A model generated the notes under the pieces. It ran no database searches. It was not told the origin of the DNA and saw nothing but the letters and a program-made list of their open reading frames with translations. From IMG/VR virus record IMGVR_UViG_3300045988_085840: a DNA stretch of 32,905 bases, one strand, 5' to 3'. A program made the translations under genes and the position numbers. Below, piece by piece: positions 3,899 through 32,905 of this stretch. Within the stretch, counting starts at the first letter, position 1; each line of letters opens with the position of its first letter. Origin of the DNA: a virus.

Positions 3899-4263
3899 CA
3901 GCAATAGAGATATTTAAAACAATAGCGCTTGTAGCAGGCATATTAATAGCGCCGTTTATAATTGCAGCGTTGGTATGCGTATTAGTGGTTGCGCTGGGGC
4001 TTATTATAAGCCTGCTGCGTTTCCTGTTTACTATTGAGGTAGACGACGACGGCGGTATACGCGAGTGTATCGGCTGCCATTCTTACGACAACATACCATT
4101 AGCACTACGGGGCAAGACAACACAAGCAGACTACTGCGAAAACTGCAAGATTTACAAGAAAGCACAAAAGATTATAGCAAAGCGGCAACGGCGAGAAGAA
4201 AAGGAAACAGCAGCAAGACAAAAGAGCCAGACGTACGCTACGGCGGCGAAAATAACAGCGTAG
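3895..4263 (+). CDS. Membrane-anchored zinc-ribbon-like protein
   Basis: 122 aa. The N-terminal hydrophobic stretch IALVAGILIAPFIIAALVCVLVVALGLIISLL is followed by CIGC...CENC (CxxC x2) and a basic tail. Confidence 0.6.
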   Translation: MTAIEIFKTIALVAGILIAPFIIAALVCVLVVALGLIISLLRFLFTIEVDDDGGIRECIGCHSYDNIPLALRGKTTQADYCENCKIYKKAQKIIAKRQRREEKETAARQKSQTYATAAKITA

Positions 4264-4601
4264 CAATAGCACGCTTTGCGCTGGCGGTAGATGATTACAA
4301 AAGCACAGATTTTATTAATATACGCGCGCTCGGCAAAACGGCAGAGTGGGTAGAGAAATGGCTACAGAAAGGCAACAAAGTAGAGTTAGTCGGAAAGATT
4401 AAAACAGGGCACTATACAGGCAGGGACGGAAAAGAAATTTACTACACCGAAGTACTGGCAAGTAGCGTAAGTTTTGGAGAGACAAAAGCAGAGGCGCAGC
4501 AGAGGCAGCAGGCAGCAGGCGACAGACCACAGCCAACACCCAGCGACGGCGGCTTTATGGACATACCAGACGGCTACGACGACGGGTTACCATTCGACTA
4601 A
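4065..4601 (+). CDS. ssb: Single-stranded DNA-binding protein (the real start is uncertain)
   Basis: An OB-fold SSB-like sequence begins near KEPDVRYGG...FALAV...IRALGKTAEWVEKWLQKGNKVELVGKI...YTEV. It ends in the acidic tail DDGLPFD typical of bacterial and phage SSBs. The first ~55 codons of the ORF overlap the previous gene and look non-SSB-like. Confidence 0.65.
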   Translation: MYRLPFLRQHTISTTGQDNTSRLLRKLQDLQESTKDYSKAATARRKGNSSKTKEPDVRYGGENNSVAIARFALAVDDYKSTDFINIRALGKTAEWVEKWLQKGNKVELVGKIKTGHYTGRDGKEIYYTEVLASSVSFGETKAEAQQRQQAAGDRPQPTPSDGGFMDIPDGYDDGLPFD

Positions 4602-16783: not shown

Positions 16784-17543
16784 TAATTATTATAATGCAG
16801 CTAATAGCTTTACATATAACGGCGTTAATTCTCTCGATATGGGGCTTTTTATTATGGAGCAGAGCGGCGCGGACAACGCCGCCGAGCCTGTAATAGAGAC
16901 TATAAACGTACCAGCACGCGGCAATTTTGTAGTAGACAATCGCATAGACGAGCTGGACAACCAGCAATTTAACGATTATGTGCGTAAATACGTATGCTGC
17001 GTGGATATAGACGCCTTTAAGCTAGACTTAGAGGAACACGCCCGCAGGCTTTACGCTTGGCTCTACGGCAGCGGCATAGAGTATAAAAAACTCTATGATA
17101 CTTACGACAGAGACTATTACACACTTGCATACTTAAGCAGCGGGGCGAGCGTGTCAGAGCTTGCTAAGCGCCTGCTGGGACAAATAGAGATACAGTTTAC
17201 GTGCAAGGCATATAAAAGAGCACTAAAGGGAGACGAAACAATAACGATAACAAAAGCAGCCACGATTACAAACCCAGAGGGCTTTACAGCAACGCCATAT
17301 ATGAAGATATACGGCAGCGGTAACGTAACACTCTATATAAACAATCGCGCGCACGGCTTTAAAAATATAGACGGATATATAGAGGTAGACAGCGAAAATA
17401 TGAACGCGTACAAGGGCGATACATTACAGAATAATAAAATGCTTGTGGGGGCGTTTCCTAAGCTGGCAGCAGGAGACAATAACATAAGCTGGGCGGGTAA
17501 TGTAACAAAAATCGAAATAGTACCGCGCTGGTGCAAACTATGA
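16776..17543 (+). CDS. Distal tail protein (Dit / siphovirus tail component-like)
   Basis: 255 aa. The N-terminal FTYNGVNSLDMGLFI is typical of the Sipho_tail family. It lies after the tape measure gene. Confidence 0.6.
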   Translation: MLSNYYNAANSFTYNGVNSLDMGLFIMEQSGADNAAEPVIETINVPARGNFVVDNRIDELDNQQFNDYVRKYVCCVDIDAFKLDLEEHARRLYAWLYGSGIEYKKLYDTYDRDYYTLAYLSSGASVSELAKRLLGQIEIQFTCKAYKRALKGDETITITKAATITNPEGFTATPYMKIYGSGNVTLYINNRAHGFKNIDGYIEVDSENMNAYKGDTLQNNKMLVGAFPKLAAGDNNISWAGNVTKIEIVPRWCKL

Positions 17544-20245
17544 TACCAATTTTATACGCTGCCAGCGAAACAGACTTTACAACAAACGGCATAGGCTTAC
17601 TTACAGACGCGGTAAGCTGCACAGTAACAGAAGAGAGAAACGGGGCATATGAGGCGACGCTTATATACCCAGCAAAAGGACACTTAGCGGAATATATAGC
17701 AGAGGACGCTATCATTAAAGCAAAGGCGAACGACACGGACGAGCCGCAACTTTTTAGAATATACAAAAGCGGCAAACAGATAGGCAGTAATACGACGTGG
17801 AACGCAGAGCACATAAGCTACGAGCTCACGGGCAACCCTGTAGAGCGGTTTAGCATAAGCGGAGTAAATGCAGAGCAGGCGCTTAATAGGTTGCTGGCAG
17901 CAGCAGTATTTAAACACAAATACACAGCAGCAAGCGACATTACAACAGTAAACAAAACGAGCATAGCGGACGTGGTGAGCGTACGTAAGGCACTCGGCGG
18001 CGTAGAGGGCAGTATATTAGATACGTGGGGCGGCGAATATCACTTTAATAACTACAGAATAGAGCTATTAAAAGCGAGAGGCGCAGACAACGGCGTAACA
18101 ATCGAATACGGCAAAAACCTAACCGACGCAAAGCAAGAGCGTAACATAGCAAATATAGTAACGGCTATATTCCCATATGCAAAGTACACGCCAGAGGGCG
18201 AAGAAAGCGAGGTATACGTAAGCCTAAAAGAAAAGACACTAGTACACGCAGGCGCAGCAGATTACGCATATAAGCGCTGCGAGATAGTGGACTTTAGCAG
18301 CGAATGGGAAAGCGGCACGATTATAACCGAGGATATGTTAAGAGCGAAAGCAGAGGCGTACTTAGAAAAAATAAGCACCGAGCCAGATATTAATATTACA
18401 CTATCGTACGCACAACTTAAAAAAACAAAGGATTATAAAAACATACAGGTTATGGAAAGCGTCGCGCTATGCGATACAGTAACAGTACGCATAGATAAGC
18501 TGCAAATAGAAGCTACAGCAAAAATAGTAAAAGCGAAGTATGACAGCCTAAAAGAGCGCTACGACACTATGGAAATAGGCAGCGTACGCACAAACTTAAC
18601 TAAGCAGCTTACAGCGACGCAGCAGGAAGTAACAGAGAGCATAAAAAAGAACCAGACACGAGCCGAGCAGATAAAAAAGCAGATAGAGCAGACGATAGTA
18701 GACGTTACGGCAGCCATAACAGGAAACAGCGGCGGCTATGTGGTGCTTTATCCAGAGAAAAACCCGCAGGAGATTTATATATTAGACCAGCCAGAACTTA
18801 GCAAGGCTAAAAATGTCTGGCGCTGGAACCTTGCAGGGCTGGGGCATAGCAGCACAGGAGTAAACGGCAAATTTACTACAGCAATAACAGCAGACGGGCA
18901 AATAGTAGCAAACTTTATTACCGCGGGCGAGCTCACGGGCGCAATACTTAAAGCGGGCACAGTGTACGCAGAGGCGCTAGACGTGGAATACAGGAACGCG
19001 GTAACAAAGCACGCGGACGACGCCGCAAATAAGGCGTACGAGGACAGCTTAAGCAAGATACAAACGACAGCCGAAGAGATTACGCTATTGTGCAAGAAAA
19101 TAAGCGAAACGGCTATGCACAATTACGCAGCAGACTTTACGGACGATTTAAGCGCGCCGTGGTACGCAAGCTCGGCAAACAATGTAGTAGAAAGCAGTAC
19201 AACGCTTGGAAGATATGCGAAAATAGTAAAAGCAAGCGCAAATTATAGCAGTTACATACGCTGCGACACAAAGAAAACGCCCGCAGGCACTTACAGGGTA
19301 CGTTATAAAGCGGCGACCATAGCAGGGCAGGAGAATACAGCACGCGTACAATGCGGCTTTAAGACAACAGCAACAACGGCGGCAGGTGCGTTAAAATCGG
19401 ACGAGTGGACAACATTCGAGCGCGATATAGAGTTAAGCAGCGACTACGACGGCTATATATATTTTTATGCGACAGTATCGGGCACAACAGTATTAATTAA
19501 AGACGTGGAAGTGCTGGGGCTACTACGAGATTACGCAGAGGCGCAGCTTACAGTAAATGCAGATAATATTACAGCAGAGGTTAAAAGGGCGCAGGACGCA
19601 GAAAAAGAGCTAAAAGCGTCCATAAAGGTAAATGCAGACAATATTACGAGCTGCGTAACAAAAGATAACGTAGGCAGCTACATAACACAGTATTACAACA
19701 ACGTAATAGTAGCATTTAACAACAGCAGTAAATATGTACAGCTAAAAGCAGGCGAAATAAATATTTACAATGGCAAAGTGGACGCGGAGCACCTACGTAG
19801 CCGCTTTGATGAAGTCGGTAATAGATTTTGGCGAGATAATTATTACGTCGGCTGTATAGGTACGAACCGATGGAGCGGCAACAATGCGCATAAGGGCTTA
19901 GTATTTGATTTGGAGTATCAAGGTAAGTATATGGCGTGGGCTAGACAAGCAGAGGCACAAAGCGGCAGCTATTCTACTGTATTATGCTATTCCAGAGCAA
20001 ACAGTATATACACAGATGAGGGCTTACATTTAGGGGCTAAGTTGTACGCGCACGGGTTCGAGATAAACGGCGCAAATCATAAAAATAGTAGCGCAAACGG
20101 CTATACAGTAGCGGATAACAAAAGAGTAAGCATAATAACAGAGATACACGACAACGGCAACGGTACTATAGGCTGGACAACCTCGAGCATAACAGTACGA
20201 GACGGGGCAATAACAGGAGTACCAGAGGGCAGCAGCAGTATTTAG
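17540..20245 (+). CDS. Tail-associated protein (Tal; phage minor structural protein N-terminal / prophage tail endopeptidase-like)
   Basis: About 901 aa. The ATG at 17540 forms an ATGA overlap with the Dit stop. The N-terminus MIPILYAASETDFTTNGIGLLTDAVSCTVTEERNGAYE is characteristic of this family. Confidence 0.75.
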   Translation: MIPILYAASETDFTTNGIGLLTDAVSCTVTEERNGAYEATLIYPAKGHLAEYIAEDAIIKAKANDTDEPQLFRIYKSGKQIGSNTTWNAEHISYELTGNPVERFSISGVNAEQALNRLLAAAVFKHKYTAASDITTVNKTSIADVVSVRKALGGVEGSILDTWGGEYHFNNYRIELLKARGADNGVTIEYGKNLTDAKQERNIANIVTAIFPYAKYTPEGEESEVYVSLKEKTLVHAGAADYAYKRCEIVDFSSEWESGTIITEDMLRAKAEAYLEKISTEPDINITLSYAQLKKTKDYKNIQVMESVALCDTVTVRIDKLQIEATAKIVKAKYDSLKERYDTMEIGSVRTNLTKQLTATQQEVTESIKKNQTRAEQIKKQIEQTIVDVTAAITGNSGGYVVLYPEKNPQEIYILDQPELSKAKNVWRWNLAGLGHSSTGVNGKFTTAITADGQIVANFITAGELTGAILKAGTVYAEALDVEYRNAVTKHADDAANKAYEDSLSKIQTTAEEITLLCKKISETAMHNYAADFTDDLSAPWYASSANNVVESSTTLGRYAKIVKASANYSSYIRCDTKKTPAGTYRVRYKAATIAGQENTARVQCGFKTTATTAAGALKSDEWTTFERDIELSSDYDGYIYFYATVSGTTVLIKDVEVLGLLRDYAEAQLTVNADNITAEVKRAQDAEKELKASIKVNADNITSCVTKDNVGSYITQYYNNVIVAFNNSSKYVQLKAGEINIYNGKVDAEHLRSRFDEVGNRFWRDNYYVGCIGTNRWSGNNAHKGLVFDLEYQGKYMAWARQAEAQSGSYSTVLCYSRANSIYTDEGLHLGAKLYAHGFEINGANHKNSSANGYTVADNKRVSIITEIHDNGNGTIGWTTSSITVRDGAITGVPEGSSSI

Positions 20246-20678: not shown

Positions 20679-21521
20679 ATGGCTATTGTGAACACACAGA
20701 GCATAAAAGTACCGATAGACGGCGCGCCGCCGTTTGGGTACATCATAGCCAAGCAGGGCGAAATATCAAGCCGACAAGTAGAGGTAACACTACTACAGAA
20801 CGACGTAGTATATACTATACCGAGCGGAGTAAAAGCGCGTGTAAAATACTATAAGCCAGACGGCAACAAGGTAATAAACGACTGCACAATAAGCAATAAC
20901 AAAGTAATAGTAACATACACGCAGCAGATGTTAGCGGCAGCAGGCACAGGCTTTGCGGAAATACAGTTATACAACGGCTCTAGCGTACTGGTAAGTGCGA
21001 CATATTATACTAAAATCGCAGAGAGTGTATATACGGACGATATAGAGAGCACGGACGAGAGCACGAGCTTAACAAAATTAATTATAGAGACAGAACAGGC
21101 AAGGGACAGCGCACAGGCAGCAAGAACGGCAACCGAAAAAGCTACAGACAATGCCAACACAGCTACAAGCAACGCAAACGCGGCTACGAGCAACGCCACG
21201 AACGCAGCAAACGCAGCCAATAAAGCAGCAACAGCAGCAAATAACGCAGCAAGCGCAGCAGACACAGCGAAAAAAGCAGCCGACGAAGCAACCGCAAACA
21301 CAAAGAGAGAAACAGAAAACGCGAAAAACGCCACGAGCGCAGCAAACGGGGCAGCAGGAAACGCTAACACGGCAACCACAAACGCAAACAACGCAGCCAA
21401 CGCGGCGAAAGCAGCGGCAAAGACAGCACAGGACGCAGCAGCAGCAGTCTACACCGACAGGAACTACAATTTGCTTGTAAGCAGCGACGGCGCAGTAACA
21501 TTTATGTATAACGAGCAGTAA
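20679..21521 (+). CDS. BppU-like baseplate/tail fiber protein with Ala/Asn/Thr-rich shaft
   Basis: 280 aa. The N-terminal ~120 aa (IKVPIDG...RQVEVTLLQN...VKYYKPDGN...AEIQLYNG) resemble the BppU_N Ig-like domain. The C-terminal half is low complexity (ATDNANTATSNANAATSNATNAANAANKAATAANNAASAAD...). Confidence 0.55.
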   Translation: MAIVNTQSIKVPIDGAPPFGYIIAKQGEISSRQVEVTLLQNDVVYTIPSGVKARVKYYKPDGNKVINDCTISNNKVIVTYTQQMLAAAGTGFAEIQLYNGSSVLVSATYYTKIAESVYTDDIESTDESTSLTKLIIETEQARDSAQAARTATEKATDNANTATSNANAATSNATNAANAANKAATAANNAASAADTAKKAADEATANTKRETENAKNATSAANGAAGNANTATTNANNAANAAKAAAKTAQDAAAAVYTDRNYNLLVSSDGAVTFMYNEQ

Positions 21522-21536
21522 GAAAGAGAGGCAATA

Positions 21537-22598
21537 ATGGCAGTACAAAGCATTGATTTACCACGCGATACAACTATGAAAGACATAGCGGCGAGCCTGC
21601 GAGCGATTGCAGGCTTTACAGCAGCAGACCTCGTTACTATGAAACAGGTAAAGGCTATCGTAGAGGGTAAAAAAGAAAAAGAAGTATTTACAGTAGGCGA
21701 CCAGATTACAGTACCTTGGACGGATAAGGCAACAAATGTAACATACGCGGCAGTTATGGACGTCGTACATTTTGGAGACGTAGAGCTCAAGGACGGCGAA
21801 ACCACAAACGCTATGTTTTTACAATGGCATTACTGTACGCCGTTCGGGGTGCAGTATGACGCGCCAGAGGCAGAGGTAGCAACAGAGGCAACCTTTAGCG
21901 CAGATTACAATTATTACACAAAAAACAGCGACGGCAGCTTTAGCCTTGCGACTGTAACGACAGGCGGCGCTATCCCTGCGGGCACAACATATTACCACAG
22001 TGCTATTAAAGACACGAGCGGCAATATCTGTAGATATAGTTATAATCGTTGGAGCCATAGCGCTATGAGACAGTGGCTTAACAGCAAGGCGGGAGTAAAT
22101 GCTTGGTGGACGGCACAGCATAAGGGCGACGTTAAGCCCGCGGAGCTTACGACAAAGGCAGGCTTTTTAACAGGGTTCGACGACGACTTTTTAAGCTGCT
22201 TAACCCCTATCAAAATTGTAACAGTACCGAACACCATAAGCGAGCCAGACAAGAACACAGCAACAGAGATTACATACGATAAAATCTTTTTACCGAGTAT
22301 GGAACAAATGTATTGCGCGCCACAGGCAAGCGGCGAGGGCGACTACTGGGAATACTGGAAGAGAGCCAGCGGGCGCACAACACCTTGCGCACAATGGCAG
22401 ACATACCCAGAAATGATTACATATGCTATAGAAAATCACAATTCAGCGCAGTACGTCCGCTTGCGTAGCGCTTATCGTGGCAACTCGTGCGATACGTGGT
22501 ACGTTGACTCGAGCGGCAGCGTCAGCAACTACGGCGCGTACAACTCTATGCGCTGCGCGCCCGCTTGTGCAATTACGGGGGCACCCGTAGCAAAATAA
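21537..22598 (+). CDS. DGR target protein 1 (putative receptor-binding protein, C-type-lectin/DUF1566-like variable C-terminus)
   Basis: 353 aa directly after the fiber gene. The C-terminus ...RSAYRGNSCDTWYVDSSGSVSNYGAYNSMRCAPACAI corresponds to the TR-encoded RSANRGNSYNTWYVNSSGNVNNNNANNSMRCAPDC. This is the DUF1566/CLec-type VR style. Confidence 0.9.
   Translation: MAVQSIDLPRDTTMKDIAASLRAIAGFTAADLVTMKQVKAIVEGKKEKEVFTVGDQITVPWTDKATNVTYAAVMDVVHFGDVELKDGETTNAMFLQWHYCTPFGVQYDAPEAEVATEATFSADYNYYTKNSDGSFSLATVTTGGAIPAGTTYYHSAIKDTSGNICRYSYNRWSHSAMRQWLNSKAGVNAWWTAQHKGDVKPAELTTKAGFLTGFDDDFLSCLTPIKIVTVPNTISEPDKNTATEITYDKIFLPSMEQMYCAPQASGEGDYWEYWKRASGRTTPCAQWQTYPEMITYAIENHNSAQYVRLRSAYRGNSCDTWYVDSSGSVSNYGAYNSMRCAPACAITGAPVAK
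22443..22569 (+). repeat. DGR variable repeat 1 (VR1)
   Basis: Aligns base-for-base with TR 23133-23259 (offset 690). There are 14 mismatches at TR adenines (12 within the core 22447-22569) and one non-A mismatch, VR 22505 t versus TR 23195 g. Confidence 0.92.
22550..22590 (+). promoter_or_regulatory. IMH-like element plus adjacent hairpin at the 3' end of VR1
   Basis: gcgctgcgcgcccgcttgtgcaat (22550-22573) is identical to 32710-32733 in VR2, whereas TR has gcgctgcgcgcccgattgtgttat. It is followed by a hairpin, acggg-ggca-cccgt (22575-22588), extendable by t74-a89. Confidence 0.7.
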
Positions 22599-22605
22599 CG
22601 CTAAT

Positions 22606-22629
22606 GCCCTGCCGACGCCTCGGCGGGGC
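22606..22629 (+). terminator. GC-rich hairpin downstream of target gene 1 (terminator and/or DGR target-recognition structure)
   Basis: gccctgccga-cgcc-tcggcggggc forms a 10-bp stem (one G-U pair) with a 4-nt loop. No T-run follows. The hairpin after VR2 has a similar sequence. Confidence 0.5.
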
Positions 22630-22674
22630 TATCAAAGCGGAAAACGAAAATATAAAAGAAAGGACAAGCGCGAC

Positions 22675-23091
22675 GTGTCAGTAAACGAGAGCGAAAGAGG
22701 TAAAGGAAAATTTGACGTACTTATAAAGGCGAACGACTTAGCGGTATATACAATAAGAATTACAAAGAACCCTAAAATATTTCTGCCAGAGTATCAGACG
22801 GCATTAACAAATGACATCATACACACGGCAAAAGAAATATTTACGAAAGCGTGGACAGCAAACAATATAAGAGTAGGCGACGAGCCGCGTAACTGGCTCG
22901 AGCGTAAAAAGCTACAGCAAGAGGCAGCCAGAGAGTGCAATAACTTACTCGCATTTATACAAATGGCTAAGCCTCTATACCACTTAACAAGCAAAAGAGT
23001 TAAGTACTGGGGACAAAAGACAATAGAAGTACGCCAAGCATTGAGAGACTGGAACGCAGGAGACACAAAGAGATACGGAAAACTAGAATAG
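22675..23091 (+). CDS. avd: Accessory variability determinant (Avd-like four-helix-bundle protein)
   Basis: 138 aa, basic, predicted helical, with a GTG start. It sits between the target gene and TR, ending about 40 nt before TR, as bavd does in Bordetella phage BPP-1. Confidence 0.7.
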   Translation: MSVNESERGKGKFDVLIKANDLAVYTIRITKNPKIFLPEYQTALTNDIIHTAKEIFTKAWTANNIRVGDEPRNWLERKKLQQEAARECNNLLAFIQMAKPLYHLTSKRVKYWGQKTIEVRQALRDWNAGDTKRYGKLE

Positions 23092-23132
23092 ATAGCAGCG
23101 CCGCAAGGCGATACTATAAAAGGGTTGTAGGC

Positions 23133-23259
23133 TAAACGCAGAACGTCCGCTTGCGTAGCGCTAATCGTGGCAACTCGTACAATACGTGGTACGTGAACTC
23201 GAGCGGCAACGTCAACAACAACAACGCGAACAACTCTATGCGCTGCGCGCCCGATTGTG
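23133..23259 (+). repeat. DGR template repeat (TR)
   Basis: Noncoding copy of the VRs. Read in the VR frame it contains a TAA at 23133-23135 and 12 AAY codons, including (AAC)4. It holds about 32 adenines between 23137 and 23259. It lies upstream of the RT. Confidence 0.92.
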
Positions 23260-23411
23260 TTATACAATTAGTCACACGGCAGCCCCGTAGGAGCTGCGCA
23301 CTATATTTTAATTGCACAAGGAGCCGAACACCCAGCCGCAAGGCTAAACAACGCCGAGGCGATACAAACAGCTTGCGAGCTGCGCGTTATACACGTCGCG
23401 GGACTTATAAA

Positions 23412-24467
23412 ATGAATGACGATATTAAAGAGGATATCGAAGAGAATATTATAGGCTTTGACGCCCTCTATAGCTCAATGGAGAAATGCAGAAAAGGCGT
23501 TATCTGGAAAGATAGCGTAGCACATTACTACTTAAACGGGATAGAGGAAACACTTAAGCTAGAGGAGCAGCTTAAGACGGGCACATACAAAGAGAGAAAG
23601 CCCGTACAGTTTACAATAATGGCGCCAAAGAAAAGAGAAATAGTTAGCATAGCTTTTAGAGATAGAGTATATCAGAGAAGTTTAAACGATAATGCGATAT
23701 ATCCGCAAATGACAAAGGGTTTTATAAATACTAACGTAGCCTGTCAGAAAGGAAAAGGCACAGACTTAGCCAGAGAGACACTTAAAAAGTACTTAAGGGC
23801 TATGTATAGGAAGTACGGCAAGAATTTTAACGTATTGCAATGCGACATACACGGCTATTATCCAAATATGCAGCACGAGACAGCACGCCAGACCTTTAGA
23901 AAAGGATTAGAGCCGCATATATACCAAAGAGCCGACCGAGTACTTACAAACCAGTACGCGGGAGAGATTGGCTATAACCCTGGTTCGCAAATGATACAAA
24001 TAGCGGGAATATCAGTTTTAAGCCCGATAGACCATTTTATAAAAGAGCGATTGCACATAAAGTACTATATACGATATATGGACGACTTTATACTACTACA
24101 CGAAAGCGCGCAGTACTTAGAATACTGCAAGCAGGAGATAGACAAGCACTTACGCGTTATGGGCTTTGAGTTTAACCCGAAGAAAACACACGTATATAGC
24201 GTAGGTAAGTGTATACCATTTTTAGGCTTTAACTTTAAGCTGGACGACAAAGGCAAAGTAATAATGCTACTTAAATCGGACAACGTAAAAAGAGAGCGCA
24301 AAAAGCTACAAAGGCTTGTTAATAAATGCAAGCGCGGCGAGATAACAAAAGAGAAAGTAAACGTATGTTATGCAGGCTGGCGGGTGCACGCAGAAAAAGG
24401 CGACAGCACGCACTTACTCGACAGAATGGATAAATACTATAAAGACCTATGGAAAGGGGCGAAATAA
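23412..24467 (+). CDS. DGR reverse transcriptase
   Basis: 351 aa from the ATG at 23412. It has the RT motif C YIRYMDDFILL and IGYNPGSQMIQ, which resembles the DGR-clade (I/L)GxxxSQ motif. It is immediately downstream of TR. The ORF-track start at 23151 runs through TR and is rejected. Confidence 0.9.
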   Translation: MNDDIKEDIEENIIGFDALYSSMEKCRKGVIWKDSVAHYYLNGIEETLKLEEQLKTGTYKERKPVQFTIMAPKKREIVSIAFRDRVYQRSLNDNAIYPQMTKGFINTNVACQKGKGTDLARETLKKYLRAMYRKYGKNFNVLQCDIHGYYPNMQHETARQTFRKGLEPHIYQRADRVLTNQYAGEIGYNPGSQMIQIAGISVLSPIDHFIKERLHIKYYIRYMDDFILLHESAQYLEYCKQEIDKHLRVMGFEFNPKKTHVYSVGKCIPFLGFNFKLDDKGKVIMLLKSDNVKRERKKLQRLVNKCKRGEITKEKVNVCYAGWRVHAEKGDSTHLLDRMDKYYKDLWKGAK

Positions 24468-25368: not shown

Positions 25369-26343
25369 ATGAACAAACAGGAATTTTTACAGTTAATCGT
25401 ACCACTTGCACAGGCAGAGGCAAAAAGAAGAAAGGACGCAGGCACAGGCTTTGTACTTCCTAGTGTGTGTATCGGACAGGCAGCGTTAGAAACAGGCTGG
25501 GGCGGCTCTAGCCTTATGACTAAGGCTAATGCGTTTTTCGGCATTAAGGCTACTACGAGCTGGGGCGGCAAAGTGTTTAGCTCAAAAACGCAGGAGTGCT
25601 ACGACAATGTTAATTACACAACTATTACAGCAGCATTTAGAACGTACGACACACCAGCAGACAGCGTAAAGGACTATTACGACCTCATTACAGGCAGCGC
25701 ACGTTACGCAGCCGCAGTAAATGTAACAGACGCACGTACAGCTATTACAGCTATTAAAGAGGGCGGCTACGCCACAAGCCCTACATACATAGCTAATGTT
25801 ATGGCGGTCATTGACAGTAACGACTTAACACAGTACGATAATGTGGTAACAGGAAATGCAGAGCCACAGCCAGCGGCAGGAAAGAGCGCCGAAGAACTGG
25901 CAGACGAGATTATTAACGGAGTATGGGGAAATAACCCAGAACGCCGCGAGAATATCACAGCCAAGTACGGCGCAGCGGCATACGAAGCAGCGCAGGCTAT
26001 CGTAAATCAGAGAGCAGGAGCGACAGAACCAGCAAAGCCAAGCAAGAGCACCGAAGAGCTGGCGCAGGAAATTATTAACGGAGTATGGGGCAGCAATCCA
26101 GAACGCCGCGAGAATATCACAGCGCAGTACGGAGAGGCAGCGTATGAGGCAGCACAGGCGCGCGTAAACGAGATTATGGGCGCAGGCTCTACCATTAAGA
26201 GCAAAACAGCCGAAGAGCTGGCAGACGAGATTATTAGAGGCGAGTGGGGCAGCAATCCAGAACGCCGCGAGAATATCACAGCCAAGTACGGGGCAGACGC
26301 TTACAGAGCAGCGCAGGCTATTGTAAACGAGCGTATGGGGTAA
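25369..26343 (+). CDS. Endolysin: N-terminal glucosaminidase domain plus three Cpl-7-type cell-wall-binding repeats
   Basis: 324 aa. IGQAALETGWGGS...FFGIK...YATSPTYI resembles the mannosyl-glycoprotein endo-beta-N-acetylglucosaminidase family. It is followed by three copies of AEELAxEIIxGxWGxNPERRENITAxYG..AY.AAQ..VN (CW_7 style). Confidence 0.85.
   Translation: MNKQEFLQLIVPLAQAEAKRRKDAGTGFVLPSVCIGQAALETGWGGSSLMTKANAFFGIKATTSWGGKVFSSKTQECYDNVNYTTITAAFRTYDTPADSVKDYYDLITGSARYAAAVNVTDARTAITAIKEGGYATSPTYIANVMAVIDSNDLTQYDNVVTGNAEPQPAAGKSAEELADEIINGVWGNNPERRENITAKYGAAAYEAAQAIVNQRAGATEPAKPSKSTEELAQEIINGVWGSNPERRENITAQYGEAAYEAAQARVNEIMGAGSTIKSKTAEELADEIIRGEWGSNPERRENITAKYGADAYRAAQAIVNERMG
25885..26340 (+). 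repeat. Three in-frame tandem repeats (162 and 159 bp periods) encoding Cpl-7 repeats
   Basis: Repeat anchors (g/a)ccgaaga start at 25888, 26050 and 26209. All three copies share an identical 26-bp core, ccagaacgccgcgagaatatcacagc. Confidence 0.85.
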
Positions 26344-31482: not shown

Positions 31483-32088
31483 GTGGAGACAGACAACGCA
31501 GTAGCATTACAGGGCATATTAAAGGAGCTGCGCAAGGTAGATAACATTAACACGCTGCCATTTAACGGATACGAGCTTACAGTTGTTACCGAACGACGCA
31601 GCGGAGCACTTGACGAGGCTATAGTATACGTGCAGGGCGATAATGTAGACAGTATCGGAGTAAATACGCCAGTTATGATACTTGGCAGCTTACAGGCTTA
31701 TAAGAATTTTATAACAGGCAAGGTACTTGTATACGTACTGGCAGAGACAGCGCAGCAGATTACGGGCGAGCACTGGGACTACGAAAACGAGGTACAGTTA
31801 AGCGGAGCACTCGGCAGCGGCATTACATACCGCGAGACGCCACTAGGCAAACGCATAAGCGATATAAGCGTACTGGTAGAGAACAGACTAAAAGACCTAC
31901 ACGGCTGCTATATACCCTGTATCGCTTGGAACGATACAGCAGCTATGGTTAAAGAATGGCACGAGGGCGAGCGCGTAACCTTAAAAGGCAAGCTACAGAG
32001 CAGAGCTTACACTAAACGCGTAGGCGAGCAGCAGGAAGAGCAAAGAACAGCGTACGAGGTATCTATATACGCGATAGGAAAAGAGTAA
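31483..32088 (+). CDS. OB-fold ssDNA-binding-like protein (possibly tandem OB)
   Basis: 201 aa with a GTG start after aaaggag. The C-terminal half, NEVQLSGAL...YRETPLGKRISDISVLVEN...YIPCIAWNDTAAMVKEWHEGERVTLKGKLQSRAY...RTAYEVSIYAI, follows the SSB OB-fold pattern. It has no acidic tail. Confidence 0.45.
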   Translation: METDNAVALQGILKELRKVDNINTLPFNGYELTVVTERRSGALDEAIVYVQGDNVDSIGVNTPVMILGSLQAYKNFITGKVLVYVLAETAQQITGEHWDYENEVQLSGALGSGITYRETPLGKRISDISVLVENRLKDLHGCYIPCIAWNDTAAMVKEWHEGERVTLKGKLQSRAYTKRVGEQQEEQRTAYEVSIYAIGKE

Positions 32089-32107: not shown

Positions 32108-32740
32108 ATGCAGATAAAAAAGACAATATTAACAGAGAGTGTTACGCTCGAAGAGCTTAGAAAGATTATAAGAGAGGGACGAGCTGCGGAAGTACTGGCA
32201 GTAGGCGACCAGATTTACATTGATTTTGACGGCGCAGCAGTATCATACGACGTAATAGGCATAGACGCAGACACACCAGCAGCCGAAGAGCTTAAGCATA
32301 CAGTTACCATACAGGCGCACGAACTAATAGAAGAACGCCCGTTTGATACAAAGGGACGTTACGGCTCTAACGACTGGGAAACAAGCGAGCTTAGAGAGTA
32401 CCTTAACAGCGAGATATACGCGGCACGCTGCGCAGAGCTGGCTAAGTATGCAATACCAGTTGCTAAAATGAACACAAACGGCAGAAAGACAGTAGATACG
32501 TTTTTCTTGTTATCTGTAGACGAATACGACGCCAAAGACACACTATACGAGTATTACAAAGACAAGCTATACAGAGCAGCCAAGCACGCAAAGGACGACT
32601 ACAACGACTGGCATAGAACGCGTAGCGCTCATCGTGGCACCTCGTACAATACGTGGTACGTGTACTCGAGCGGCAGCGTCTACAGCGGCTACGGCGCGGA
32701 CTACTCTGTGCGCTGCGCGCCCGCTTGTGCAATAGGATAA
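32108..32740 (+). CDS. DGR target protein 2 (shorter paralog of target 1 with variable C-terminus)
   Basis: 210 aa. It shares EV(F/L)xVGDQI, W..S.(M/L)R.(W/Y)LNS and (I/F)FL(P/L)S motifs with target 1. Its C-terminus, RSAHRGTSYNTWYVYSSGSVYSGYGADYSVRCAPACAIG, is encoded by VR2. Confidence 0.88.
   Translation: MQIKKTILTESVTLEELRKIIREGRAAEVLAVGDQIYIDFDGAAVSYDVIGIDADTPAAEELKHTVTIQAHELIEERPFDTKGRYGSNDWETSELREYLNSEIYAARCAELAKYAIPVAKMNTNGRKTVDTFFLLSVDEYDAKDTLYEYYKDKLYRAAKHAKDDYNDWHRTRSAHRGTSYNTWYVYSSGSVYSGYGADYSVRCAPACAIG
32621..32729 (+). repeat. DGR variable repeat 2 (VR2), remote from the cassette
   Basis: Aligns to TR 23154-23259. All 13 substitutions fall at TR adenines. One extra codon lies inside the region templated by the (AAC)4 run. 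It has the same IMH-like 3' end as VR1. Confidence 0.88.
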
Positions 32741-32752
32741 ATATAAATAATA

Positions 32753-32774
32753 CGCCCTGTACGCTTACAGGGCG
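32753..32774 (+). terminator. Hairpin downstream of VR2 (terminator and/or DGR target-recognition structure)
   Basis: cgccctgta-cgct-tacagggcg forms a perfect 9-bp stem with a 4-nt loop, 19 nt after the IMH-like element. It shares GCCCTG, a CGCY loop and a trailing CTAT with the hairpin at 22606-22629. Confidence 0.55.
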
Positions 32775-32850: not shown

Positions 32851-32905
32851 CATTACCACATTTATATTATACGCTGCATACGGCAAAAAGGCAAGGAAAA
32901 ACAAC
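32851..32905. repeat. Terminal direct repeat, copy 2 (circular-closure overlap)
   Basis: Identical to bases 1-55. The unique genome length is therefore about 32,850 bp. Confidence 0.95.

Follow-up and report, generated by a model that had tools for sequence, protein, structure and literature searches.

Does the diversity-generating retroelement (DGR) in this phage genome possess all of its parts, and which genes does its template rewrite? The question is raised by IMG/VR virus record IMGVR_UViG_3300045988_085840, a stretch of 32,905 nt that we refer to as the window. A preliminary description had reported a DGR here with variable repeat 1 (VR1) as its target, and a further copy, VR2, was not listed. 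Our analysis indicates that the window very probably holds a complete, currently active DGR of a temperate phage, in which one template repeat (TR) rewrites two paralogous DUF6273 proteins. Its parts, the adenine-specific differences between TR and the VRs and the natural diversification of both VRs are visible in the DNA itself. The parts are the following.

21537-22598, plus strand: target gene 1 (353 aa), a DUF6273 protein with VR1 at its 3' end (Pfam DUF6273, 3.5e-12).
22447-22573, plus strand: VR1, homologous to TR 23137-23263; the initiation-of-mutagenic-homing sequence (IMH), GCGCTGCGCGCCCG followed by CTTGTGCAAT, takes up the final 24 nt (22550-22573).
22675-23091, plus strand: avd (accessory variability determinant), 138 aa, pI 9.7; PHROG 3206 'Avd protein of DGR', 2.5e-7.
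23137-23263, plus strand: TR; its last 24 nt (23240-23263) are the template counterpart IMH*, GCGCTGCGCGCCCG followed by ATTGTGTTAT.
23264-23411, plus strand: spacer of 148 nt between TR and the reverse transcriptase (RT) gene, the predicted 3' part of the DGR RNA.
23412-24467, plus strand: DGR RT, 351 aa, YMDD intact; Pfam RVT_1; PHROG 1423 at 7e-72.
32108-32740, plus strand: target gene 2 (210 aa), a DUF6273 protein and compact paralogue of target 1 (Pfam 3.4e-12, 47 bits).
32620-32733, plus strand: VR2, homologous to TR 23153-23263 but longer by one NNC codon within the (AAC)4 run; IMH at 32710-32733.

A repeat finder returned a two-copy direct repeat at 22447-22569 and 23137-23259 (spacing 690 nt, 89% identity). 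TR 23133-23259 and VR1 22443-22569 aligned without gaps, as the preliminary description had it, and our recount gave the same result of 15 mismatches in 127 nt, 14 of them at a TR adenine (A>G eight times, A>T four times, A>C twice). With 35 adenines in the 127 nt, the hypergeometric probability of this bias is 1.9e-8, and tabulation by TR base gave no spread over the four bases. The example positions that had been listed were each correct, and we also counted the same 12 AAY codons, the (AAC)4 run included, in TR read in the VR frame. The sole mismatch away from an adenine, G>T at 23195, is synonymous (GTG>GTT), and in the target frame the adenine mismatches all fall on first or second codon positions. 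The same is true of all 32 TR adenines in 23136-23240, from none of which a stop codon can arise; the 20 variable codons of TR allow ~6e18 protein variants, stop-free.

Three of the mismatches call for a separate reading. Those at 23134 and 23136 recur as C and G throughout the seven related VR1 copies and may lie outside the homing tract. When the core was restricted to 23137-23253, 11 of 12 mismatches were still at a TR adenine. The A>C at 23254 had been offered as an example of a mismatch at an adenine; the mismatch is real, but the change is common to VR1, VR2 and every relative. Together with TT>CA at 23260-61, it is better read as a difference between IMH and IMH* than as a product of mutagenesis.

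With the 3' end of TR as query, we found the third copy, VR2. Its mismatches to TR are at TR adenines without exception (12/12; p = 2.6e-8), all at codon position 1 or 2. The gene around it is related to target 1 (BLASTP 4e-14) through a shared N-terminal strand region and the VR-bearing domain, and in both targets the VR forms the C-terminal end of the DUF6273 domain.

Are the two targets diversified in nature? IMG/VR contains seven contigs with RTs 95-100% identical and TRs 98.5-100% identical to those of the window, and their VR1s differ. Each compared with its own TR, these seven elements had 81 of 84 VR1 mismatches at A, and 26 of the 31 polymorphic VR1 columns were TR-adenine columns. 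Two related stretches, L002 and L003 (L numbers denote loci from the survey of relatives), are 99.9% identical over 900 nt upstream of VR1 and 82.9% identical in VR1. Where TR has one of its rare variants at a base other than adenine, the cognate VR1 has it as well (T>A in L005-7, C>T in L002/3, T>C in L005), which is a signature of information flow from TR to VR. The C>T of the L003 TR also occurs in the VR2 of L168, a different contig from the same sample.

For VR2, one comparison is with L166: its TR is identical to that of the window, and the first 512 nt of target 2 are the same in both. The L166 VR2 differs from the window VR2 at adenine sites and is without the extra codon, and its VR1 differs too. 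We compared 18 distinct VR2 sequences of IMG/VR with TR, and 221 of the 236 differences were at A. At the protein level, a 90%-identity cluster of target 1 contained 1424 distinct sequences of 351-357 aa that vary at Asn-coded (TR-adenine) positions. Taken together, the variation in VR1, in VR2 and in the proteins indicates that both targets are diversified in nature; variation at the VR positions, on which the preliminary description had made its claim depend, is strong between otherwise near-identical genomes. The length range of the target-1 clusters (351-357 aa) partly reflects a C-terminal QNG extension, not VR length.

The extra codon of VR2 was seen as five NNC codons (32681-32695) where TR has (AAC)4. 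The VR1 of L005 likewise has five variable codons (L005:9070-9090) opposite an (AAC)4 TR, and 6 of the 18 distinct VR2 sequences carry the additional codon. As neither the TR nor the gene body differs between the window and L166, the extra codon is most simply explained by slippage during homing. Length differences between TR and VR are found in ~7% of DGRs, 74% of those beside AAC repeats, and were attributed to RT slippage (PMC5758913); the same model was invoked for Brt, the RT from BPP-1, a Bordetella phage (PMC12875486). The indels described here resemble those of that survey (Wu et al. 2018), but the length discordance in the window can be placed later than the split of two genomes that are otherwise identical and share the same TR. 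This dating favours slippage during homing over a change in the length of TR.

By its alignments, the RT is a DGR-clade reverse transcriptase. Its best match in the PDB was 8ub7_A (328 aa; E 1.6e-15), compared with 6e-9 for a group II intron RT; no retron matched in the PDB. BLASTP aligned residues 44-343 with BPP-1 Brt (AY029185) at 27% identity (E 1e-22), and we took 8ub7_A to be Brt because the two agree in length and align with the window RT residue by residue in the same way. In these comparisons the RT did not fall with group II or retron RTs; its best solved relative is Brt. GenBank phage RT matches include DGR phages described in the literature (Bordetella, Faecalibacterium, nd4/nd12, Shimadzu).

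The YMDD noted in the preliminary description is present, whereas the 'IGxxxxSQ-type motif' reported there was placed in the wrong register. Aligned with Brt and 138 relatives, motif 4 (23946-23975, residues ~179-188) reads GYNPGSQMIQ opposite GIPIGSLTSQ of Brt. The family alignment of 139 RTs and a HMMER alignment both set GYNPGSQMIQIAG opposite Brt GIPIGSLTSQLFA. Across the subclade the motif is G-Y-N-P-G-S-Q-[MLIV]-[IV]-Q, so that the canonical [LIV]GxxxSQ becomes PGSQMIQ here. The hallmark SQ is IQ in this RT; only the Q is kept, and the serine is replaced by Ile or Val in the subclade. The residue opposite Brt I181, a position that has been linked to adenine infidelity, is Pro in a subclade that has clearly retained adenine mutagenesis.

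A longer open reading frame, 23151-24467 (438 aa), starts at a TTG inside TR and runs through the spacer into the RT. We set it aside, as RT homologues and gene calls start at ATG 23412; by this comparison the upstream extension 23151-23411 is probably fortuitous.

The product of the gene before TR had been described as a basic helical protein of Avd size, and this was borne out by its length, its pI, four helices and the PHROG Avd match. The AlphaFold2 (AF2) model is a four-helix bundle (pLDDT 90.8). In Foldseek the top matches were 2rld and 2gsc (TM-scores 0.72/0.88), followed by BPP-1 Avd (8ub7_B-E and 4dwl_D, TMt 0.75-0.83), with TM-scores of 0.66-0.88 overall. 2rld was deposited as a member of the S23 ribosomal protein family, and we take both top matches to be relatives of PF05635. 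The protein itself had no Pfam match; among the 34 members of its family, five matched Pfam bAvd and three matched PF05635, and one homologue carries the name 'Avd-like protein'.

What would mark the sequence tract that is exchanged? GCGCTGCGCGCCCG is common to TR, VR1 and VR2, and after it come 10 nt that read CTTGTGCAAT in VR1 and VR2 but ATTGTGTTAT in TR. The two VRs thus have one and the same IMH, with 3 positions at which TR differs, and this difference between IMH and IMH* is fixed in all relatives. The layout is that of BPP-1 (PMC5758913). Each VR is followed by a GC-rich inverted repeat.

22606-22629, plus strand: inverted repeat after VR1; 10-bp stem, 4-nt loop CGCC, no T-run; predicted hairpin/cruciform target-recognition element.
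32753-32774, plus strand: inverted repeat after VR2; 9-bp stem, loop CGCT, no T-run.

Folded as DNA, the VR1 hairpin reached -13.6 kcal/mol (z = -4.0) and received no terminator call, and the VR2 hairpin, which is identical in L166 and L162, reached -10.7 kcal/mol (z = -4.7). The 86 nt after the TR homology folded no better than shuffled sequence; the hairpin found after TR is weaker and different, has a 3-nt loop and is part of the conserved spacer RNA. The hairpins after the VRs are conserved in relatives and their stems covary. Across this family of DGRs their loops follow CRCY (CACC 8, CGCC 6, CACT 2, CGCT 2) on stems of unrelated sequence. Most of these loops are closed by an A.T pair (27 of 32 unique-locus hairpins, loci L001-L090). 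Guo et al. described hairpins or cruciforms with a 7-10 bp stem and a 4-nt loop, 4-34 bp from the VR (PMC3240598). We infer a similar role in target recognition for the hairpins of the window.

The spacer between TR and the RT gene has 148 nt, compared with 144 nt in BPP-1, and is conserved in 28 relatives with RTs ~50-100% identical. Hairpin 1 (23279-23297) has an 8-bp stem with compensatory changes at 8 of 8 pairs in the alignment of the 28 relatives. An almost invariant, Shine-Dalgarno-like CAAGGAGCCGAA at 23317-23328 is not followed by a start codon. Hairpin 2 (23334-23345) has a GNRA loop and a covarying stem, its loops are mostly GNRA in the relatives, and AAACAA follows at 23346. RNAalifold recovered hairpin 1 only; hairpin 2 was obtained with an anchored script, which was needed because the length of the spacer varies. 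Rfam recognised no family anywhere in the window, the spacer included, and the spacer could not be aligned by eye with that of BPP-1. Spacers of this length would hold a reading frame that is open throughout by chance in ~10% of cases. A promoter-like site at 23060-23089 was not above chance.

The BPP-1 spacer carries the priming adenosine, and by analogy the spacer in the window would bind RT-Avd and prime cDNA synthesis. We envisage that an RNA spanning the 3' end of avd, TR and the structured spacer would be bound by an RT-Avd complex, as in BPP-1. cDNA would be primed in the spacer, and copying of TR would place random nucleotides opposite the template adenines, with the RT occasionally slipping by one codon in the (AAC)4 run. 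The cDNA would then replace the homologous tract of a target gene up to a 3' boundary set by the GC-rich IMH, and the hairpin or cruciform downstream of each VR may aid recognition.

How firmly does the assignment to DGRs stand? We found no evidence that contradicts it, but several observations weigh against our interpretation of single components. The loops CGCC and CGCT depart from the published phage-DGR loop consensus GRNA (PMC3240598), and motif 4 of the RT departs from [LIV]GxxxSQ. Foldseek E-values of Avd were weak (2.7e-3 to 0.8), and neither sequence and profile searches of Avd against the PDB nor hhalign against BPP-1 Avd gave anything significant; because these searches came up empty, Avd was assigned from its fold, PHROG and the transitive Pfam matches. 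Foldseek of target 1 against the PDB and BFVD returned no Mtd, TvpA, FGE or other C-type-lectin DGR target, and hhalign of target 1 against Mtd found nothing, so that these searches did not confirm a C-type-lectin fold. The best PHROG of target 1 is phrog_10993, 'Hoc-like head decoration' (4.9e-19), a label that makes its location on the tail less certain. Variation between genomes, moreover, records past activity in the lineage and not the activity of this particular copy. Finally, the best NCBIfam match of the RT is a group II intron RT/maturase (66 bits, cut-off 300). The last point, with Drt3a as the next match, could suggest that the locus is no DGR, its repeats being ordinary paralogous or recombining ones and its RT that of a group II intron, a retron or a defence system. 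These two matches are far below their cut-offs, however, and the NCBIfam matches as a whole (group II, Drt3a/DRT, retron) are below cut-off and uninformative. A locus of that kind is also at odds with mismatches that fall 14/15 and 12/12 at one base of one copy (p ~1e-8 each), with the directional asymmetry across >20 genomes, with Brt as the best solved relative over a full-length alignment, with the presence of Avd, IMH and hairpins, and with the Rfam search, which detected no intron RNA and no retron msr/msd family. We regard a non-DGR origin as effectively refuted. It is very improbable, too, that the cassette is a fossil in which TR and the VRs are leftovers of past homing and this copy no longer diversifies. 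The genome is known from sequence alone, VR2 and TR differ in length and motif 4 is non-canonical, all of which would suit a fossil. Yet all open reading frames and the YMDD are intact, and L166, with an identical TR and 0/512 differences in target 2, has a different VR1 and VR2, which points to very recent homing. Non-adenine variants of TR are mirrored in their VRs, the non-canonical motif 4 is common to a whole diversifying subclade, and indels in AAC runs are a known product of active DGRs (PMC5758913).

With an active DGR as the favoured reading, the question remains what target 1 does, and the genes before it bear on the answer. A tail endopeptidase gene (17531-20245, Pfam Prophage_tail) is followed by two small open reading frames, a BppU-like gene and then target 1.

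20679-21521, plus strand: BppU-like tail/baseplate fibre gene, just 5' of target 1; PHROG tail-fibre families, phrog_19280.

The position of the target gene directly after a BppU-like fibre gene, as given in the preliminary description, was confirmed by the PHROG families and by homology to P0006, a protein of 509 aa from a relative. P0006 matches Pfam BppU_N (9.5e-9) and is an in-frame fusion into a target-1 homologue; the N-terminal 156 aa of the BppU-like protein are 80% identical to its N-terminus. The window protein itself was below the Pfam threshold for BppU_N. phrog_19280 spans both the BppU-like part and the DUF6273 part of target 1. The BppU-like protein is the probable anchoring partner of target 1. 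A long stretch of it is made up of Ala/Asn-rich repeats (21145-21448; direct-repeat families D1 and D3), and the matching Ala-rich stretch of P0006 has a weak Alanine_zipper match in Pfam (E 0.067).

Target 1 matched Pfam DUF6273 (PF19789) with 47 bits (cut-off 23.5), and its AF2 model had a pLDDT of 90.9. Foldseek matched it (E 5e-9 over 332 columns; profile E 9e-4) to 9qa6, the N-terminal DUF6273 domain of an IgA protease from Thomasclavelia ramosa, which is the only solved structure that resembles it. The role of this domain in the IgA protease was not established in the study concerned (PMC12402451). The other fold neighbours are many phage DUF6273 proteins in BFVD, among them some labelled tail-collar fibre and receptor-binding protein. 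The BppU_N-target fusions and the gene position suggest that target 1 sits on the baseplate or fibre as a receptor-binding module. From these two lines of evidence, target 1 is most likely the distal tail receptor-binding protein. Its diversification would then plausibly alter host or receptor specificity, the programmable tropism proposed in the preliminary description. We consider it unlikely that the DGR instead diversifies a Hoc-like capsid or virion decoration, or an adhesin, for mucus, immunoglobulin or other ligands, and so tunes persistence in the gut rather than host range. The phrog_10993 label and the gut-bacterial IgA protease as the only solved structure with this fold would fit such a function, and non-host ligands have been raised for gut-phage DGR targets in the tentaclin paper (PMC10743442). 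The gene, however, follows the tail endopeptidase and BppU-like baseplate genes and is not in the head module; natural in-frame fusions with BppU_N (P0006, and phrog_19280 across both parts) and the tail-collar fibre and receptor-binding labels in BFVD speak for the tail.

Target 2 lies elsewhere. It is preceded by an SSB-like gene (31483-32088) and followed, across the circular junction, by Rep (144-902), and this order of SSB, target 2 and Rep is the same in integrated and circular relatives. Target 2 was present in contigs that also carry the L001, L004 and L007 cassettes. Its tight linkage to SSB in the early/replication module and its distance from the structural genes in the prophage could suggest a non-virion, early-expressed binding protein, intracellular or on the cell surface, directed for example at a variable host factor or a defence protein or acting in exclusion. 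We hold this to be distinctly improbable; if true, the phage DGR would diversify a non-structural function in parallel with the receptor-binding protein.

The window carries an exact direct terminal repeat of 55 nt (1-55 and 32851-32905), and this overlap indicates a circularly assembled complete genome of 32,850 bp. The assembly cut the circle between target gene 2 and the Rep gene. On the circular map, target 2 with VR2 is 9.4 kb away from TR. Read from the host flank, integrated relatives carry integrase, repressor, early genes, SSB, target 2, Rep and, further on, terminase, head and tail genes, target 1, avd, TR, RT, lysis genes and attR, from which a distance of ~23 kb between VR2 and TR follows for the prophage state. 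Tail genes come first, then the BppU-like gene and target 1, and lysis genes lie downstream. The phage is a temperate, siphovirus-like gut phage.

The host flank of the integrated relatives encodes a GGGtGRT protein that is 96% identical to a protein of a Lachnospira sp. metagenome-assembled genome (MAG), and on this match we took the host to be Lachnospira (Lachnospiraceae), which is probable. The cassette type is a common one: in IMG/VR we found 192 related stretches, with the order target, Avd, TR and RT kept in >60 loci. Megablast of the cassette against GenBank phages gave no nucleotide match. The nearest GenBank RT, from an unannotated human-faecal phage contig, was 59% identical, and identity to the RTs of the DGR phages nd12, Shimadzu, FP_Brigit and nd4 was 29-34%. 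An RT scan of species-representative genomes found only relatives at <=61% identity, in MAGs labelled Saccharibacteria or Lachnospiraceae. The closest, L082-L086 (56-61% identity), lie on long contigs of mouse- and human-gut MAGs that carry the label 'Candidatus Saccharibacteria'. These labels were set aside as evidence on the host, and the flank of the integrated relatives, which points to Lachnospira, was used instead.

Other genes of the window may be mentioned briefly. There are two SSB-family genes (31483-32088 and 4065-4601); the former, with an N-terminal extension, is immediately 5' of target 2, and the counterpart of the latter in relatives is near the ParB/HNH/terminase region. The endolysin (25369-26343) has an N-terminal glucosaminidase domain followed by three near-identical, CW_7-like repeats of ~50 aa (AEELADEIINGVWGNNPERRENITAKYG...).

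Compared with the prototype DGR of BPP-1 (mtd-avd-TR-brt), the element has the same order of target, avd, TR and RT, adenine-specific differences between TR and VR, an AAY-rich TR, a GC-rich IMH of 14 nt and behind it a segment that is not the same in IMH*, a GC-rich inverted repeat of 8-10 bp with a 4-nt loop after the VR, a TR-RT spacer of ~145 nt, an RT alignable over its full length and an Avd with a four-helix fold. Unlike in BPP-1, the target is a DUF6273 protein in which no sequence similarity to Mtd was detected, a second, non-adjacent target exists, the hairpins have the loop CGCY and not GAAA/GRNA, motif 4 reads PGSQMIQ where Brt has IGSLTSQ, the spacer sequence is unrelated, and the host is a Gram-positive gut anaerobe.

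Also comparable are the Faecalibacterium prophages Lelie/Toutatis and CP11 (PMC11792537) and nd4/nd12 (PMC10743442), which are likewise temperate phages of gut Firmicutes that diversify two proteins from one TR. Lelie and CP11 also pair a large and a small DUF6273 target with the VR at the domain C-terminus (PMC11792537), and tgt2 of nd4/nd12 are DUF6273-only proteins that their authors modelled as C-type-lectin-like (PMC10743442). The RTs of nd4/nd12, Shimadzu and FP_Brigit, however, are only ~29-34% identical to that of the window. In contrast to these gut-phage DGRs, the window is without a tentaclin-type target (N-terminal VR plus Ig) and has its small target in the replication module, between SSB and Rep. 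Phage DGRs often have one adjacent and one non-adjacent target in the same prophage, according to the survey of Wu et al. 2018 (PMC5758913), and in the window, in the L005 VR1 and in 6/18 VR2 sequences the +1 codon has its counterpart in the AAC-run indels of that survey.

Elements of this type are already well described; the window holds a clean example, not a system of a new kind. There are precedents for DUF6273 targets and for pairs of large and small DUF6273 proteins (PMC11792537, PMC10743442), for non-adjacent prophage targets and indels in AAC runs (PMC5758913) and for hairpins after the VR (PMC3240598). The CRCY loop, the PGSQxIQ motif 4 and the conserved spacer RNA are minor, family-specific variations. 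We know of no prior description of this loop, this motif or the architecture of the spacer RNA, features for which the literature was not searched.

The existing picture of DGRs is unchanged by the element in the window. Its value is that of a clean and complete natural DGR with two targets, carried by a phage whose host lineage (Lachnospiraceae) is an abundant commensal of the human gut; dozens of near-identical genomes record the diversification of both targets. With a genome of 33 kb and all parts within 3 kb apart from one remote VR, it may serve as a compact model for how one TR serves two targets, how slippage in the AAC run affects loop length, and which ligands DUF6273 proteins bind.

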